Shown one piece after another: positions 5,151 through 45,745 of a stretch of DNA of 64,000 bases. The stretch's first letter is position 1. Every line of letters begins with the position of its first letter. The translations under genes and the position numbers were made by a program. The notes under the pieces are model-generated. The model did not search any database. It was not told where the DNA came from and saw nothing but the letters and a program-made list of their open reading frames with translations. Where the stretch lies: the NCBI GenBank assembly GCA_038065075.1, contig JBBTRQ010000008.1, positions 11,960 to 75,959 of the forward strand, read 5' to 3'. The DNA is from Patescibacteria group bacterium. Its GTDB lineage: Bacteria; Patescibacteriota; Patescibacteriia; UBA9934; GWF2-40-263.

Positions 5151-5241
5151 GCCTCGTCATTGCGAGGAGCGAAGCGACGAAGCAATCCAAGAGTTCAAAG
5201 ATTGCTTCGCTCCCGTTGGTCGCTCGCAATGACGAGGCTTT
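5151..5241. repeat. Nested-hairpin palindromic element (family copy 1)
   Basis: Outer arms agcctcgtcattgcgag / ctcgcaatgacgaggct. Inner arms gaagcaatc / gattgcttc. Related copies at 43381-43470 and 45650-45745. Confidence 0.7.
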
Positions 5242-9729: not shown

Positions 9730-12384
9730 ATGCCTACACAAACTCGACCCACCTTTCTCATCCTCGACGGCAACGCGCTCTTGCACCGCGCCTGGCACGC
9801 CATTCCCCCGCTGACCACAAAAGACGGTTTGGTTGTGAACGCCGCCTATGGGTTCGCGATGATTCTCGAGAAGATGATCGAGACGCAGAAGCCCGAGTAC
9901 ATGGCCGTGGCGTGGGACGTGGAGGGCGGCACATTTCGGGATGAGATTTTCGCCGCCTACAAAGCGCAGCGCGAGAAGAAGGAACAGGAGCTCTACGACC
10001 AGATTCCGATCATCCAAAAAATTCTCGCCGCATTTGGGATTCCTTCGATTGAAGCGCCTGGATACGAGGCCGACGACATTATCGGCACGCTCTCGAAACG
10101 GGCGGCGGATCAGGGATTGCGAGCACTGATCGTCACGGGCGACCTCGACAGTCTCCAGTTGGTCGACGAAAACGTGCAGGTACTATTTTTTCAAAAAGGG
10201 ATTAGCGAGACAAAACTCTACGACGTCGAGGCGGTGAAGGAGCGTTATGGGCTTACAGTAGATCAACTCATCGATTACAAAGCCCTGCGTGGAGATCCAA
10301 GCGATAACATTCCCGGAGTGGCTGGTATCGGTGAAAAAACCGCGACGACCTTGTTGCAGAAGTATCACTCGATCGACGGGATCTACAAACACCTCGAGCA
10401 GATTGAGGAGAAGTACGCCAAAAAACTTCGGGGCCAAGAAAAGACCGTCGAGATCGCGCTCAAGCTCGTGACGATCGTGCGCGACATGAAGTTTCCGTTC
10501 ACGTTTGAAGAGGCCAAGCGCGGCGCGCCCGATTACGAGAAACTTCTTCCCCTCTATAAGGATCTCGAGTTTCGTACGCTGTTGAAAAAACATGGCGAGC
10601 CGATGAGTGATGATGGTGGCCGTGGTGGTGTCCAAGGTGGTAGCCCCAGGCTTCAGCCTGGGTCCGAGAAGGTTGTCACTCGAGTTCAAATTGTCCGAAC
10701 GATCGAGCAGATCCAGCCCAGGCTGAAGCCTGGGGCTACCATCGCCGTTCTCATTGCGGAGCAACCCGCAGATCTTTTCGGGGCGACTACCGCCGCGGTG
10801 GGAATTTACGACGGAAAGAACACCGTCGTTCTCCCCAACCCGTCACGCGAGGCGCTCGCGTCTGTCGCAGGCATCCTAGCGAAGGCTGATCGAGTCATCA
10901 CTCACGATCTCAAACATCTCATGCACCAGCTTGGGAGCGTTGTCGATCGCCCGGCGTTCGACACCATGATTGCGTCGTATCTCCTTGCCTCAGGTTCTCG
11001 AGCACATGATTTACCTGGCGCCATGCATGGGTTCCTCGGTCGGTCGGTGGAAGTGCCAGCGACGTTTGCGAAAGAAAAAGATTACGAGCGGTTTGGACAA
11101 GTTGTCGCGGCTCTTCCGGAGCTTGCACAAAGAATGGAGAAAGAACTCGAGAAGGCGGGATCCACGAAGGTCTTCGGGGAGATTGAAATGCCACTTATTC
11201 CCGTCCTCTATCACATGGAGGTCGAAGGGATTGAGCTTGATACCAAGAGCCTCGAAGTTTTTTCCGCGAGTCTCAAAAAGCGTATCGACGAACTTACCAA
11301 GAAGATCACTAAGCTCGCCGGCGTCGAGTTTAATCTCAACTCCCCTTCCCAACTTGCGGACGTCTTGTTTGTGACCATGGGACTCTCAACCAAAGGCATC
11401 AAGAAAACAAAAACAGGATTCTCTACCGCCGCGCCAGAACTCGAGAAACTGTGGGACGCTCATGAGATCATTCCCCTGCTCTCCGAGTATCGCGAGCTGA
11501 CGAAGTTGCAGTCGACCTATGTGGAGGCCCTTCCCAAACTCGTTGCCAAGGACGGTCGTGTGCATACCAGTTTCAATCAAACCGTTGCGGCCACGGGGCG
11601 TTTATCTTCGTCGGATCCGAACTTGCAGAACATTCCGATCAAGACAGATCTTGGTCGTGAGATTCGCAAGGCGTTTGTCGCGCCACGCGGAAAAATTCTC
11701 GTTGCGGCCGACTACAGTCAGATCGAATTGCGGCTCGCCGCGGTGATCGCAAAAGACAGACCGTTCATCCAGGCGTTTCAGGAAGGGGCGGACATTCATA
11801 CCCGCACAGCGGCTGAGGTATGGGATGTGAGTGAGGAGAAGGTTACAAAGGAACAACGTCGCGCGGCCAAAGCGATAAACTTCGGGATTCTCTACGGCAT
11901 GGGGCCACGGTCGCTCTCGCGATCGACTGGACTTTCAATGGAAGAAGCAAAACATTTTATCGAGCGTTACTTTGAGATCCACCACGCGATCCGTGACTAT
12001 CTCGACCAAACAAAATTGAAGGCGCACACGGACGGCTATGTTGAAACGATGTTTGGTCGACGACGGTATCTCCCCGAGATTCAGTCGGGCGTGCCGATGC
12101 TGGTTGCGAGTGCGGAGCGCATGGCGATCAACATGCCGGTGCAAGGGACGGCCGCGGATATCATGAAAATGGCGATGCTGCGCGTGGACGGTTGGCTTAC
12201 GCAAAGCCAGTGGCCGGCAAAGATGCTTTTGCAGGTGCATGACGAGCTGGTGCTGGAAGTCGACAAGGCGGCGATGGAACCGGTCGTGGCGGGAGTCAAA
12301 GAAATGATGGAGAGCGTGGCGAGCTTTGAGGTGTCGCTGGTTGTGGACATCGAAGTGGGAAAAAACTGGGGGGAGATGAAATAG
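9730..12384 (+). CDS. polA: DNA polymerase I
   Basis: 5'-3' exonuclease region FLILDGNALLHRAWHA and LIDYKALRGDPSDNIPGVAGIGEKTA. Polymerase motifs RRAAKAINFGILYGMG and LLQVHDELVLE. Start taken at Met 9730 rather than the upstream ORF-track start. Confidence 0.9.
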   Translation: MPTQTRPTFLILDGNALLHRAWHAIPPLTTKDGLVVNAAYGFAMILEKMIETQKPEYMAVAWDVEGGTFRDEIFAAYKAQREKKEQELYDQIPIIQKILAAFGIPSIEAPGYEADDIIGTLSKRAADQGLRALIVTGDLDSLQLVDENVQVLFFQKGISETKLYDVEAVKERYGLTVDQLIDYKALRGDPSDNIPGVAGIGEKTATTLLQKYHSIDGIYKHLEQIEEKYAKKLRGQEKTVEIALKLVTIVRDMKFPFTFEEAKRGAPDYEKLLPLYKDLEFRTLLKKHGEPMSDDGGRGGVQGGSPRLQPGSEKVVTRVQIVRTIEQIQPRLKPGATIAVLIAEQPADLFGATTAAVGIYDGKNTVVLPNPSREALASVAGILAKADRVITHDLKHLMHQLGSVVDRPAFDTMIASYLLASGSRAHDLPGAMHGFLGRSVEVPATFAKEKDYERFGQVVAALPELAQRMEKELEKAGSTKVFGEIEMPLIPVLYHMEVEGIELDTKSLEVFSASLKKRIDELTKKITKLAGVEFNLNSPSQLADVLFVTMGLSTKGIKKTKTGFSTAAPELEKLWDAHEIIPLLSEYRELTKLQSTYVEALPKLVAKDGRVHTSFNQTVAATGRLSSSDPNLQNIPIKTDLGREIRKAFVAPRGKILVAADYSQIELRLAAVIAKDRPFIQAFQEGADIHTRTAAEVWDVSEEKVTKEQRRAAKAINFGILYGMGPRSLSRSTGLSMEEAKHFIERYFEIHHAIRDYLDQTKLKAHTDGYVETMFGRRRYLPEIQSGVPMLVASAERMAINMPVQGTAADIMKMAMLRVDGWLTQSQWPAKMLLQVHDELVLEVDKAAMEPVVAGVKEMMESVASFEVSLVVDIEVGKNWGEMK
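10639..10740. repeat. Miniature palindromic element inserted in frame inside polA
   Basis: Perfect 24-bp terminal inverted repeats: GGTAGCCCCAGGCTTCAGCCTGGG at 10639-10662 and CCCAGGCTGAAGCCTGGGGCTACC at 10717-10740. Each arm also contains an internal hairpin. Total 102 bp, equal to 34 codons, so the polA reading frame is preserved. Confidence 0.7.
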
Positions 12385-40830: not shown

Positions 40831-41017
40831 ACACGCCCCGGCCAAGTACATCCAGAACCCCAACGGCGAGGTCACTCGCATCACCAGCGCTTGCTGGACG
40901 CACCCCCGAAATTCCGTCACGGAGTCTCGGGGGATTTACTTTTTTAGACATCGCGACTTTTTGTCGCTATACTCGCCACTGATTCATCGCAGGCTAAAAT
41001 CTTTGACACGCGCTCAA

Positions 41018-41074
41018 ATGGTAGCCGCAGGCTTCAGCCTGCGTCCGAACGCGGGCTAAAGCCCGCGGCTACCC
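41018..41074. repeat. Short sibling of the polA-internal palindromic element
   Basis: GGTAGCCGCAGGCTTCAGCCTGCG..tccgaac..GCGGCTACC shares its terminal motif and the internal tccgaac with the element at 10639-10740. Confidence 0.65.
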
Positions 41075-41089
41075 AGAGCGGCTACCACT

Positions 41090-42172
41090 ATGCTACAAGT
41101 TGGAATCGTTGGGCTCCCCAACGTCGGCAAGTCCACCCTTTTCAAGACACTCACAAAAAAGCAGGTCGACTGCGCGAATTTTCCGTTCTGCACGATCGAA
41201 CCAAACGTGGGTGTGGTGGAGGTACCCGATGAGCGGGTTGACGAGCTCGCTCGAATGTCAAAGTCTGAGAAGATCATCAAAACAGCCGTTGAGTTCGTCG
41301 ATATCGCCGGGCTCGTGAAGGGGGCACATAAAGGAGAGGGACTGGGCAACAAGTTTCTTGCCAACATCCGAGAGGTCGACATGATCGTCCATGTGGTGCG
41401 AGCGTTTGAGGATGGGAACGTCGTGCACGTTGAGGGCAACATCGACCCGGCTCGCGATGTGGAGACGATCGAGATTGAATTGGCCATGGCAGATATCAGC
41501 ACGGTCGAGAAACGACTCGACGGCGTGCGCGGCAAGATGAAGGCAGGGAAGACGAAGGACCTCGAACTTGAAGAAGCGGCGCTCGCCAAATGGTTTGCCG
41601 TGCTTGAGCAGGGGAAGATGGCGAACACGGTTGAGCTGACCGATGAGGAGCGTGAGGTGGTGCGGGACGTGAGTCTGCTCACCAACAAGCCGATCTTGTA
41701 CGTCCTCAATGTCGCTGAAGGTCAAACTCCGACCCCCCTCCTTTTGAAGGAGGGGTTGGGGGTGGTTACGAGTGAGCAGCTTCCGATTTCGATCAAGCTC
41801 GAATCAGAGATCATGGAGATGGCGCCGGAGGATCAGCAACTTTTCCTTGAGGAACTCGGTCTCAAACAATCAGGTCTGGATCGCCTCATCGCCAAATGTT
41901 ACGAGTTACTCAATCTGATTACGTTCCTCACGACCGGTGAAAAAGAAACCCGCGCATGGACGATCACGCGCGGGACCAAGGCGCCGCAGGCCGCGGGCGT
42001 CATTCACACAGATTTTGAAAAAGGATTCATTCGCGCTGAGGTCATTAGCTATGAGGATTTCGTCGCCCATGGCGGCGAGGCTGGCGCACGCGACAACGGG
42101 AAATTGCGGGTGGAAGGGAAGGACTACGTCATGCAAGACGGCGATGTGAGTCATTTTCGGGTGAGTACGTAG
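41090..42172 (+). CDS. ychF: Ribosome-binding ATPase YchF
   Basis: [15 protein letters not shown]-loop, [11 protein letters not shown]2 motif, [11 protein letters not shown]-terminal TGS domain. Confidence 0.85.
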
Positions 42173-43374
42173 ATGTCGCGAGCCACGAGTTGGTCCTCGC
42201 GATAGTACAGATAGGTGTCGAGGACTTTGTAACCGAGTTTCTCGAGGAGTGGCTTCAAAGGAAGGCGGTGCCAGTCACCGTCTTCTTGCCCGCCATAGCC
42301 CGTCGGTCGGCGACGGGTTGATTTGTAGGCTGGGAACGCGACGACGGCGCGGCTGGTTGGTTTCAAGAGTGACGCGAGCGACTCGAATGACTCGCCAAAA
42401 ACAGGCATGAGCTCCGACTCAAGCTGACGACTCTCTCGATCATCGACGGCTTTGAATCGAGGATTGCCCAGGAAGACTTCGGTGACAAGGAGGTCAATGC
42501 TAACCACCCCCGACCCCTCCTTCAAAAGGAGGGGAGCATTCGCAGCGGTAGAGACAAGTAAATTTATCTTAGGTGGCGTGAGTCCAAACGCGGCGACGAG
42601 CCAGTTCATGTTTTTCTTGGTGTCGGCGACGGCCTTCTCCGAGATGTCGCTTCCAATGATTTCTGCACATCCCATGAGAGCGCCTTCCATGAGTACCGTT
42701 CCCGATCCACAAAACGGATCGAGCAACACGGCACCACGAGGATCGATTCCAGAAAGATTGATCATCATGCGAGCGAGCTTGGGGGGAAGCATGCCGGACC
42801 TGGCATCGCGCGCGGGGCGGCCGTAATCACGGTCTGACCAGGCTTTGAAATTTTGGATGGCTTCCGTTTGTCCGATGAGGATGTTGTTCTCGCACACGAG
42901 GAGCACGTACTCGCCGCCGGACTCGAGCAGGCCATTGGTTTCAACGATCGCCGAAGACAGGCGCGGCTCCTTGCCTTTCACGTACCGCACAGGTCGACCG
43001 ACTTCTTTGAGACGTTTTTTTACCTCAAGTCCCAACTGGTCCAGGTCGCGCTCGAGAAACCGGGTCGCTTTTTTGTTGCCCAGGTCATAGACGCTCAATC
43101 CAAAACTGATTTTGTTTTTGCCCGCCGCGCCGCTGGCGAGGCTCGCAACTAAATCGGCGGCCTCGATTTTATTCCACGCCTTGAGCTCACCAGCAACGCG
43201 GCCAACTTTCACGATGCCGCCCAGGCGCTCCTGGAGCTCGCCCAAGTTCCGGTCGATGGGTTCAATCACGACCACAGACTCGGAAACAAAAACAGGACGG
43301 TACTCGCGACCCAGTACGGCCTTTAGTTCCGCGATCGAAAGTTCAGGATGAGATCCGAGGATGAAGTAGATCAT
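42151..43374 (-). CDS. THUMP-domain RNA methyltransferase (class I SAM MTase)
   Basis: LDPFCGSGTVLMEGALMG motif I plus an N-terminal THUMP-like region. Start set at MIYFILG to exclude the palindromic repeat that the longest ORF reads through. Confidence 0.55.
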   Translation of the reverse strand: MIYFILGSHPELSIAELKAVLGREYRPVFVSESVVVIEPIDRNLGELQERLGGIVKVGRVAGELKAWNKIEAADLVASLASGAAGKNKISFGLSVYDLGNKKATRFLERDLDQLGLEVKKRLKEVGRPVRYVKGKEPRLSSAIVETNGLLESGGEYVLLVCENNILIGQTEAIQNFKAWSDRDYGRPARDARSGMLPPKLARMMINLSGIDPRGAVLLDPFCGSGTVLMEGALMGCAEIIGSDISEKAVADTKKNMNWLVAAFGLTPPKINLLVSTAANAPLLLKEGSGVVSIDLLVTEVFLGNPRFKAVDDRESRQLESELMPVFGESFESLASLLKPTSRAVVAFPAYKSTRRRPTGYGGQEDGDWHRLPLKPLLEKLGYKVLDTYLYYREDQLVARDIYVLTRK

Positions 43375-43380
43375 AGAAAA

Positions 43381-43470
43381 ACGTTCTCCCGTCATTGCGA
43401 GCGACCGAAGGAAGTGAAGCAATCTTCGAAGATTGCTTCGTCGGCCTGCGGCCTCCTCGCAATGACGAGA
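43381..43470. repeat. Nested-hairpin palindromic element (family copy 2)
   Basis: cgtcattgcgag..gaagcaatcttcgaagattgcttc..ctcgcaatgacg. Confidence 0.7.
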
Positions 43471-43592
43471 TGAGTACATCCTCTCAAATATTGACCTTTT
43501 TTACAAAGGACGCTAGGATTCGACCGCTAATATTTAACTGTCCATGATCCAGTTTATCTGGGTCGTCCCGAGCAAAACGGGACCAGTACTCT

Positions 43593-45649: not shown

Positions 45650-45745
45650 CATTTGTGTCATCCCGAGCGAGCGAAGCGAGCCGAGGGATCTCGAATTTGA
45701 GATCCCTCCACTCGGCCGTCGAACGGCCTCGGTCGGGATGACAGG
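45650..45745. repeat. Nested-hairpin palindromic element (family copy 3, variant arms)
   Basis: tgtcatcccgagcgagcgaagcgagccgagggatctcgaatttgagatccctc..cggtcgggatgaca. Confidence 0.65.

Follow-up and report, generated by a model that had tools for sequence, protein, structure and literature searches.

Probable GTAG-tagged REP dimers within polA and in the ychF leader of a Patescibacteria bacterium

Two inverted hairpin pairs in a Patescibacteria contig

The DNA analyzed here (the window) is a stretch of 64,000 nucleotides from contig JBBTRQ010000008.1 of a Patescibacteria group bacterium. It contains a polA gene, whose product has the same sequence as P0001, named 'DNA polymerase I [Patescibacteria group bacterium]', and matches the Pfam families 5_3_exonuc_N, 5_3_exonuc and DNA_pol_A. 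The nearest named relatives of this PolA protein belong to Candidatus Uhrbacteria. Within polA, the 102 bases at positions 10639-10740 begin with the 24 nucleotides GGTAGCCCCAGGCTTCAGCCTGGG and end with the exact reverse complement of GGTAGCCCCAGGCTTCAGCCTGGG. A second pair of similar arms is found shortly upstream of ychF (Table 1). The arms have the anatomy of repetitive extragenic palindromes (REPs) of the GTAG-tagged type, and both units are very probably head-outward REP dimers, of which the polA pair is tolerated in a linker and a loop of the polymerase.

The polA pair was described in an initial annotation of this DNA as perfect 24-bp inverted arms, each folding on itself, with the polymerase frame continuing through the palindromic repeat. 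These three points were borne out. Complementarity between the arms reaches 25 of 25 nucleotides (10638-10662 with 10717-10741), and 54 nucleotides lie between them. Each of the window's arms, taken alone, forms a 7-bp stem with a 4-nucleotide loop (-13 to -14 kcal/mol). The 102-base stretch is in frame within the 884-residue open reading frame (ORF) and encodes PolA residues 304-337, GSPRLQPG-SEKVVTRVQIVRTIEQIQ-PRLKPGAT. As RNA, the entire polA unit is predicted to fold into one long hairpin (-65.8 kcal/mol, z = -9.4).

An AlphaFold model of the window's PolA, with a mean predicted local distance difference test score (pLDDT) of 79, places the left arm (residues 304-311) within an interdomain linker at residues 290-316, where pLDDT is below 50. 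The residues between the arms form a strand (319-321) and a short helix, which open the exonuclease-like domain, and the right arm (residues 330-337) is modelled as a loop running into a strand at 337-349. The initial annotation asked whether the inserted peptide forms a surface loop; in the model, the arms occupy the low-confidence linker and a loop, and the interior is a strand and a helix.

The sibling copy reported upstream of ychF is present, although it spans 41020-41073 rather than 41018-41074. Its arms are separated by 6 nucleotides, with the tags facing outward. The right unit differs from the left at three positions; the changes at positions 10 and 21 compensate each other within their own stem, and the third is in the loop. 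The resulting stems are GCGGGC/GCCCGC versus GCAGGC/GCCTGC. The ychF unit also is predicted to form a long RNA hairpin (-43.6 kcal/mol, z = -8.6). Because promoter-like matches are found upstream of the dimer and an ATG downstream, the dimer is placed in what is probably the 5' untranslated leader of the gene. We take the ORF at 41090-42172 to be ychF, on the basis of the label in the initial annotation and an N-terminal P-loop motif that we recognized. The ychF and polA spacers differ, and only the arms are common to the two units. No direct repeat or target-site duplication is visible beside either unit.

All four arms start with GGTAGCC, the GTAG lying outside the stem, and they are the only matches to the arm pattern in the 64-kb window. 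None of 100 dinucleotide-preserving shuffles of the window matches the pattern, and the units are thus far beyond chance. Another 10 kb of the same contig (L155) contain no further arm, which gives four arms in ~74 kb in total. When the window was searched with Rfam 15, only tRNAs reached the gathering score, and a search of the ychF-leader unit against Rfam at a permissive E-value gave nothing beyond weak similarities to generic hairpins (miRNA precursors), which score far below threshold.

Table 1. Features of the window associated with the two putative REP dimers
Feature	Position	Strand	Basis
polA, DNA polymerase I, 884 aa; host of the in-frame REP pair	9730..12384	+	ORF list, Pfam, identity to P0001
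Left REP unit, polA: GTAG tag (10640-10643), 7-bp stem, TTCA loop; residues 304-311, GSPRLQPG	10639..10662	+	
Native polA codons between the arms, 54 nt; residues 312-329, SEKVVTRVQIVRTIEQIQ; outside the repeat	10663..10716	+	Orthologue alignment, AlphaFold model
Right REP unit, polA: exact inverted copy of the left unit; residues 330-337, PRLKPGAT	10717..10740	-	
Two overlapping sigma-70-like promoter matches upstream of the ychF dimer	40945..41000	+	10/12 and 9/12 hexamer matches, consensus only
Left REP unit, ychF-leader dimer: GGTAGCCGCAGGCTTCAGCCTGCG	41020..41043	+	
Right REP unit, ychF-leader dimer: GGTAGCCGCGGGCTTTAGCCCGCG	41050..41073	-	
ychF (presumed name), 360-aa GTPase/ATPase; ATG 17 nt past the REP dimer	41090..42172	+	ORF, translation

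The repeat family in other genomes

The pattern GGTAGCCNCNGGCTTNAGCCNGNG, which fixes 19 bases, was searched on both strands of a collection containing one genome per species (596 Gb). At least 119 genome stretches, distributed over more than 20 phyla, contain it, whereas by our own calculation about 4 would be expected by chance. The taxa represented include Planctomycetota, Acidobacteriota, Nitrospirota, Ignavibacteria, Chlorobi, Omnitrophota, Desulfobaccales, Elusimicrobiota, Verrucomicrobiota, Cloacimonadota, Aerophobetes, a cyanobacterium and a Patescibacteria metagenome-assembled genome, as well as others. Among the matches listed, some genomes carry several loci, such as an SCN18 bin with seven loci and Gemmataceae CALDUY with four. 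In a separate scan of metagenomes, the exact arm of the window was found in 27 stretches. The exact arm pattern also occurs in twelve predicted viral contigs of IMG/VR (L160-L171). Searching the full texts of the literature for the arm sequence yielded no paper.

Each repeat unit consists of an unpaired GGTAGC(C) tag, a GC-rich stem of 6-7 bp, and a TTYA loop, which is either TTCA or TTTA. The stem is supported by covariation: pair 8-23 is Watson-Crick in 175 of 187 copies and pair 10-21 in 177 of 187, compared with 105 and 125 expected if the columns were independent. The free stem positions switch among G-C, C-G and A-T pairs in these copies, and the C-G class at pair 8-23 is inflated by 32 copies of the window's own variant, including copies from the exact-match scan. 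The GTAG head was fixed in the search pattern, so conservation of the tag is imposed by the search; partner arms show tag variants such as TGTAG and GATAG. Outside the 24 nucleotides, only a pyrimidine at -1 and +1 is conserved in 177 distinct copies. The heptamer 'tccgaac', which the initial annotation noted in both the polA and ychF units, is therefore not supported as a feature of the family.

Neighboring units are preferentially arranged as convergent pairs with tags outward. There are 33 real pairs of this kind and 10, 10 and 6 pairs in the other three arrangements; 19 overlapping both-strand self-matches of the palindromic core were left out of the convergent count. Spacers range from 0 to ~290 nucleotides, most being 0-55 nucleotides, and they have no sequence kinship. 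One locus (L140:8291-8587) contains an array of eight REP units with stem types CCCAGGC and CCCCGCC, in alternating orientation and with a 68-nucleotide period, and thus resembles bacterial interspersed mosaic elements (BIMEs).

Dimers of 102-103 bp with a spacer of 54-55 nucleotides recur in the window (10639-10740) and at L003:5159-5260, L004:6833-6934, L038:592-693 and 835-936, L057:6894-6995, and L070:1308-1410. These spacers have no common sequence. The recurrent length could be a matter of chance or could indicate a preferred geometry.

Arms in polA orthologues

The polA unit was initially interpreted as a single 102-bp miniature element that adds 34 residues to the polymerase. An alignment of 30 PolA orthologues and inspection of 120 did not support this interpretation. 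Every orthologue inspected, whether or not it has arms, contains a stretch (xxKxxVxIVxxxx) that corresponds to the 18 residues between the arms. The closest orthologues, which are 85-90% identical and 865 residues long, lack both arms, and the window's protein is 19 residues longer (884 versus 865) rather than 34. Moreover, arms occur singly in some lineages. Thus, the unit of the repeat is the 24-nucleotide hairpin, and the 54-nucleotide interior is native. The outcome that the annotation had named as fatal to an insertion, an equivalent conserved linker in all orthologous proteins, was not observed either; the linker of the closest orthologues is different and shorter.

Presence, decay and absence of the arms vary among polA lineages. 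The polA genes of L003 and L004, whose proteins are 83% and 74% identical to that of the window, carry both arms at the same positions, with a span of exactly 102 bp. Both arms also are present in L005, with an additional 30-nucleotide hairpin nested in the loop of the left arm. The left arm alone is found in L006 (P0017), and in L007 (P0007) only the right arm is intact and the left has decayed. L001 and L002 have no arms. Arm peptides or their relics can be recognized in ~20 of the 120 PolA orthologues. The left arm is translated as GSPRLQPG, GSRGLQPA or GSRRLQPA, and the right as PRLKPGAT or RRLKPAAT; decayed forms, such as ELEPRLQSLAV, also are found, and the arms of P0008, P0018 and P0050 contain loop insertions.

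The stems of the polA arms include CCCAGGC/GCCTGGG, CGCGGGC/GCCCGCG and CGCAGGC/GCCTGCG, with paired changes that preserve each stem. In the polA pair of L004, as in the ychF pair, the two arms of one pair differ from each other compensatorily. Therefore, the individual hairpin is conserved, and not only the duplex between arms.

The loop insertions consist of hairpin-forming DNA. In L005:3705-3836 (P0008), and also in P0018, P0050 and P0266, at least ~30 nucleotides of such DNA are nested in the loop of an in-frame arm. The nested hairpin lengthens the encoded linker, as in GSRGL[PADAEALAGR]QPA.

A sliding DNA comparison of the window's polA with that of L001 gives 83-98% identity on the flanks and 33-56% across residues 289-343. 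Eleven of the 18 interior residues of the window match L004, whereas 3 of 14 match L001. Judged from these sequences, it looks as if the arm-bounded segment was exchanged between alleles, or was replaced in the armless clade.

In the armless gene at L001:10859-10984, codons for K-G-S-T (AAGGGTTCGACC) align with the final 15 nucleotides of the right arm (AAGCCTGGGGCTACC), and the native codons directly after them read GTAGCC. Rather than having been inserted, some of the right arm may have formed locally, for instance through a template switch against the left arm.

Two further observations concern the polA gene rather than its arms. At PolA residues ~338-347 (window 10741-10770), Uhrbacteria proteins read LIAEQ at the position where, by expectation, we place the first 3'-5' exonuclease motif (DxE). 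A Pfam exonuclease domain is not listed for most of the PolA orthologues. On sequence grounds, the middle domain of Uhrbacteria PolA is probably catalytically inactive. The other observation is a metagenomic contig (L154; ENA ERZ2470813 NODE_460) that matches the window throughout the first 1.67 kb of polA except for two 1-nucleotide deletions. These are 11 nucleotides apart, at window positions 10409 and 10420, and polA is split there into two called genes (5'-nuclease and polymerase). The REP pair does not account for the split, as the deletions are ~220 nucleotides upstream of the arms, and the split represents either a sequencing error or a strain variant.

In-frame arms in other genes

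Several of the 27 metagenome stretches have an arm or a dimer in frame within a long ORF, as classified by Pfam. A Tgt-family ORF contains an in-frame dimer encoding GSPRLQPGFDPQDIPELKPGSTF, and in-frame arms are present in ORFs of the PheT, DnaG and TruB families. In an ORF for an APH-family kinase, the arm is read in its other open frame, as VAPGFSLG. Another in-frame arm is in an ORF for a RadA-like ATPase, in which Pfam recognizes only a zinc ribbon and an AAA/KaiC domain, and the RadA identity comes from named homologues.

The contig bearing the RadA-like ORF and the orthologues of this ORF are from Candidatus Uhrbacteria. Many of the orthologues have an arm at one shared site, the linker that joins the zinc ribbon to the ATPase domain, and its orientation varies by lineage. 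Because the same arm is in frame in RadA and in the other ORFs, polA is not a peculiarity, and in-frame residence in permissive linkers of informational genes is recurrent for this repeat in Uhrbacteria.

At this one linker site, RadA orthologues P0241-P0264 have either PRLKPGAT or RRLKPAAT in one orientation, versus VAPGFSQG or VAAGFSLR in the other. The opposite orientations imply either repeated hits at the site or alternative survival of the halves of a dimer.

Association with RAYT genes

When all ORFs of the 119 genome loci were clustered, no specific gene family was found beside the repeats, and only generic families, such as ABC ATPases, recur. Genes for REP-associated tyrosine transposases (RAYTs) were located by a search for the HUH...Y motif together with tblastn. 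Y1 transposase genes were found in L078, L054 and L038. The proteins encoded at L078:677-1147 and L054:4553-5005 pass the NCBIfam model NF047646 (REP-associated tyrosine transposase) with 98.8 and 96.8 bits, respectively (cut-off 80), and also match Pfam Y1_Tnp. Further members of the transposase family were fetched from Ignavibacteria, WOR-3 and a JGI metagenome (L156, L158 and L159). In all, five RAYT genes are flanked by REPs on both sides (L078, L038, L156, L158 and L159). In L038, the spacer has been copied along with the arms, as occurs in a true REPIN (REP doublet forming a hairpin). Two RAYTs that are 29-36% identical to that of L078 adjoin essentially the same 24-nucleotide REP (alignment of L078, L038 and L054). 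The REP is far more conserved than its presumed transposase.

Interpretation and alternative explanations

The window's arms share the principal properties of GTAG-type REPs, which are a short GC-rich stem-loop, an unpaired GTAG tag, and frequent inverted dimers with tags outward. RAYT genes flanked by the same REPs are found for the family at five loci in other genomes. The ychF pair is extragenic, but the polA pair is within coding sequence and in frame.

In E. coli TnpA-REP, the RAYT recognizes the REP hairpin and its GTAG tag on single-stranded DNA, and cuts and rejoins it. By analogy, a Y1/HUH RAYT would recognize, cut and rejoin the GTAG hairpin studied here as single-stranded DNA. Because the polA units have stop-free frames, and one is positioned in a disordered linker and the other in the loop that comes first in the exonuclease-like domain, they would be tolerated and translated, as GSPRLQPG and PRLKPGAT. 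The arms probably entered polA by RAYT-type mobilization or by allelic recombination, and they are presumably near-neutral passengers with respect to selection. The perfect identity of the two polA arms would then reflect recent acquisition, exchange or conversion, and not function. The arms could be relics of an old insertion, they could have been re-imported by allelic recombination, or they could still be mobile.

Intragenic REPs are a documented minority, and their hosts include replication and repair genes, DNA polymerase I (PolI) among them, according to the survey by Di Nocera, De Gregorio and Rocco (BMC Genomics 14:522, 2013; PMC3733652). For this reason, its location in coding sequence does not rule the polA pair out as a REP dimer.

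Several observations weigh against these conclusions. On a neighbor-joining tree of polA, made with the arm region masked, the arms are patchy, and the window's genome is nested in an armless clade; therefore, a single old vertical insertion requires several losses or re-acquisition. The density of four arms per ~74 kb is far below that of classical REPs. The Uhrbacteria DNA searched, namely the window with another 10 kb of its contig, the loci of seven polA genes and 27 metagenome loci, yielded no RAYT, and the best 120 relatives of the RAYT profile include no named Patescibacteria protein. Active mobilization in Uhrbacteria is therefore unproven. Finally, the 102-bp span is constant between polA genes that are ~74% identical, and their stems are kept compensatorily, which could indicate selection on structure.

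This last point bears on an alternative in which the paired hairpins are selected cis-acting structures and not just passengers. In polA, a stem of -66 kcal/mol in the mRNA between the nuclease and polymerase domains might act as a translation pause or as a recombination or processing signal. In ychF, a stem in the 5' untranslated region might act on mRNA stability or on the start of translation. We consider this explanation unlikely. The compensatory changes that preserve stems in orthologous polA arms, the constant span, the 25/25 complementarity of the polA arms, the folding z-scores of -9.4 and -8.6, and the position of the ychF dimer between promoter-like sites and the ATG are all as it would predict. 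In addition, REPs are reported to influence mRNA stability and termination (PMC3733652). However, the same units are found in many unrelated genes, in intergenic DNA, in many phyla, and flanking transposase genes. The compensatory variants occur family-wide and so give no sign of selection specific to a locus, and no Rfam family matches. Cis-acting structures also are not favored because most polA orthologues, including the nearest relatives, do without arms, and several others retain only decayed relics.

It is very unlikely that the 102 bp represent a single MITE (a miniature transposable element with inverted repeats) or REPIN that has terminal inverted repeats of 24 bp and was inserted whole, adding 34 residues. 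The span is exactly 102 bp in three polA lineages, dimers of 102-103 bp with 54-55-nucleotide spacers occur in unrelated genomes (twice in L038, and in L057 and L070), and the L038 spacer was copied together with its arms. The entire segment of the window's polA, arms and interior together, also is nearer to L004 than to L001, which is otherwise the closest relative. These similarities are outweighed by the alignment of the interior with native residues in all orthologues, armless ones included, where it forms a strand and a short helix, by the 19-residue difference in length, by the single arms of L006 and L007, by the fact that the ychF copy has only the arms in common, and by flanks that show a pyrimidine preference and no target-site duplication.

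Each of the two element classes was also rejected separately for the polA unit. It is not a REPIN, in that the sequence between its arms is native to polA and has no relation to the spacer of the ychF unit. It also is not a MITE derived from an insertion sequence with a DDE transposase, given the lack of a flanking direct repeat, the mere pyrimidine preference at -1/+1, and the host-derived interior. The idea that codon choice in a conserved PolI linker produced the palindrome by accident, and that no repeat family exists, can be dismissed, for although linkers vary in length, no shuffled sequence matches, hundreds of copies exist elsewhere, and the linker of the closest orthologues is different and shorter.

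A second palindromic family in the window

A second, unrelated palindromic family of ~80 nucleotides is represented in the window at 5155-5234 and 43390-43467, and a related inverted repeat is present at 45656-45743. Members have the ends CGTCATTGCGAG...CTCGCAATGACG and the inner pair GAAGCAATC/GATTGCTTC. The copy at 43390-43467 is read through by an N-terminal extension of the ORF at 42151-43479 on the minus strand, as ..SSRHCEEAAGRRSNLRRLLHFLRSLAMT... The true start of this ORF is probably the ATG at ~43374 (MIYFILG).

Implications

Bacteria of the candidate phyla radiation have very small genomes, in which repeats are thought to be scarce. The REPs described here occur in a genome of this radiation, and in the literature collection searched, no paper connects REPs or RAYTs with Patescibacteria or with the candidate phyla radiation. 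Among the few copies seen in Uhrbacteria, a striking share is in essential informational genes. Many lineages carry them at the same linker sites, where arms have been gained, lost or have decayed, and where segments possibly were exchanged. The occurrence of one 24-nucleotide REP in more than 20 phyla, and beside RAYTs that are only 29-36% identical to that of L078, bears on the evolution of REP-RAYT recognition and on whether these systems move horizontally. There also are practical consequences. Peptides such as GSPRLQPG, PRLKPGAT and VAPGFSLG in metagenomic proteins are signatures of the repeat and not of protein function, and the arms are likely trouble spots for assembly and alignment.

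A broader proposal combines several of these elements, and we put it forward tentatively, as improbable in its entirety. A near-invariant 24-nucleotide REP and its RAYT would be common to more than 20 phyla, including the ultra-small Patescibacteria, where it would repeatedly have colonized permissive linkers of PolA, RadA, DnaG, PheT, TruB and Tgt. REP pairs that bracket native codons may then be breakpoints for cassette-like exchange of gene segments between alleles, or seeds for template switching that generates the partner arm. If true, this proposal would run counter to the picture of REPs and RAYTs as lineage-specific, vertically inherited and extragenic.

Comparison with known systems

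The closest known system is that of the GTAG-tagged REPs, which were surveyed together with CGTC-tagged REPs in more than 80 species by Di Nocera and colleagues (PMC3733652). GTAG REPs have an unpaired tag at one end of a 6-9-bp stem-loop and form dimers with tags outward, 1-5 or 20-100 bp apart. Their sub-families are distinguished by complementary changes in the stem, and REPs lie on either side of RAYT genes. The tag, the hairpin, the head-outward dimers, and the REP-flanked RAYT genes in other phyla are alike in the present family. The survey recognizes 24 GTAG families.

A supplementary table of the same paper lists a REP dimer at residues 338-367 of PolI from R. palustris (RPE_4821). This dimer and the window's polA pair are at similar positions along the protein, but the R. 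palustris dimer is of the CGTC type and forms a compact insert, whereas the window's units are of the GTAG type and straddle 18 native codons. The host also differs, as Patescibacteria (Candidatus Uhrbacteria) are a group outside that survey. The initial annotation considered an in-frame palindrome in a replication gene to be notable. That view has to be moderated, as in-frame REPs in replication and repair genes, including PolI, were reported in 2013 (PMC3733652), and the polA case extends that phenomenon rather than discovering it. What appears to be new, relative to that paper, is the host group, this particular REP sequence with its very wide distribution, and the way in which two units bracket native codons.

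The annotation also likened the polA unit to Rickettsia palindromic elements (RPEs), and the behavior of the two is indeed similar. RPEs are in-frame palindromes in housekeeping genes, at surface or linker sites, and their hosts include dnaE, uvrB and truB. They are single compact inserts in obligate intracellular alphaproteobacteria, in contrast to a pair that brackets native codons, and they belong to another sequence family, RPE-4 and RPE-6 being CGTC-tagged and RPE-1 much longer (PMC3733652). Membership of the window's arms in an RPE family (RPE-1 to RPE-8) was rejected, as their tag is GTAG and not CGTC, and the resemblance is functional only.

In the BIMEs of enterobacteria, REPs alternate in orientation at regular spacing. 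The L140 array is similar, but the window contains only two isolated dimers, one of them intragenic.

In the REPIN-RAYT system (Bertels and Rainey 2011, PMC3116915; Messing et al. 2012, PMC3479197), inverted REPs fold into one long hairpin, as they are predicted to do here. A further likeness, in other phyla, is that the NCBIfam RAYT model recognizes a Y1/HUH transposase whose gene is flanked by repeats. A REPIN includes its spacer and is copied as a whole, whereas in polA the spacer consists of host codons and is not the same as that of ychF. The window's genome appears to have a very low copy number, in contrast to REPIN-RAYT systems. These systems are described as lineage-specific and vertically inherited, whereas here one 24-nucleotide REP is found with divergent RAYTs and in many phyla.

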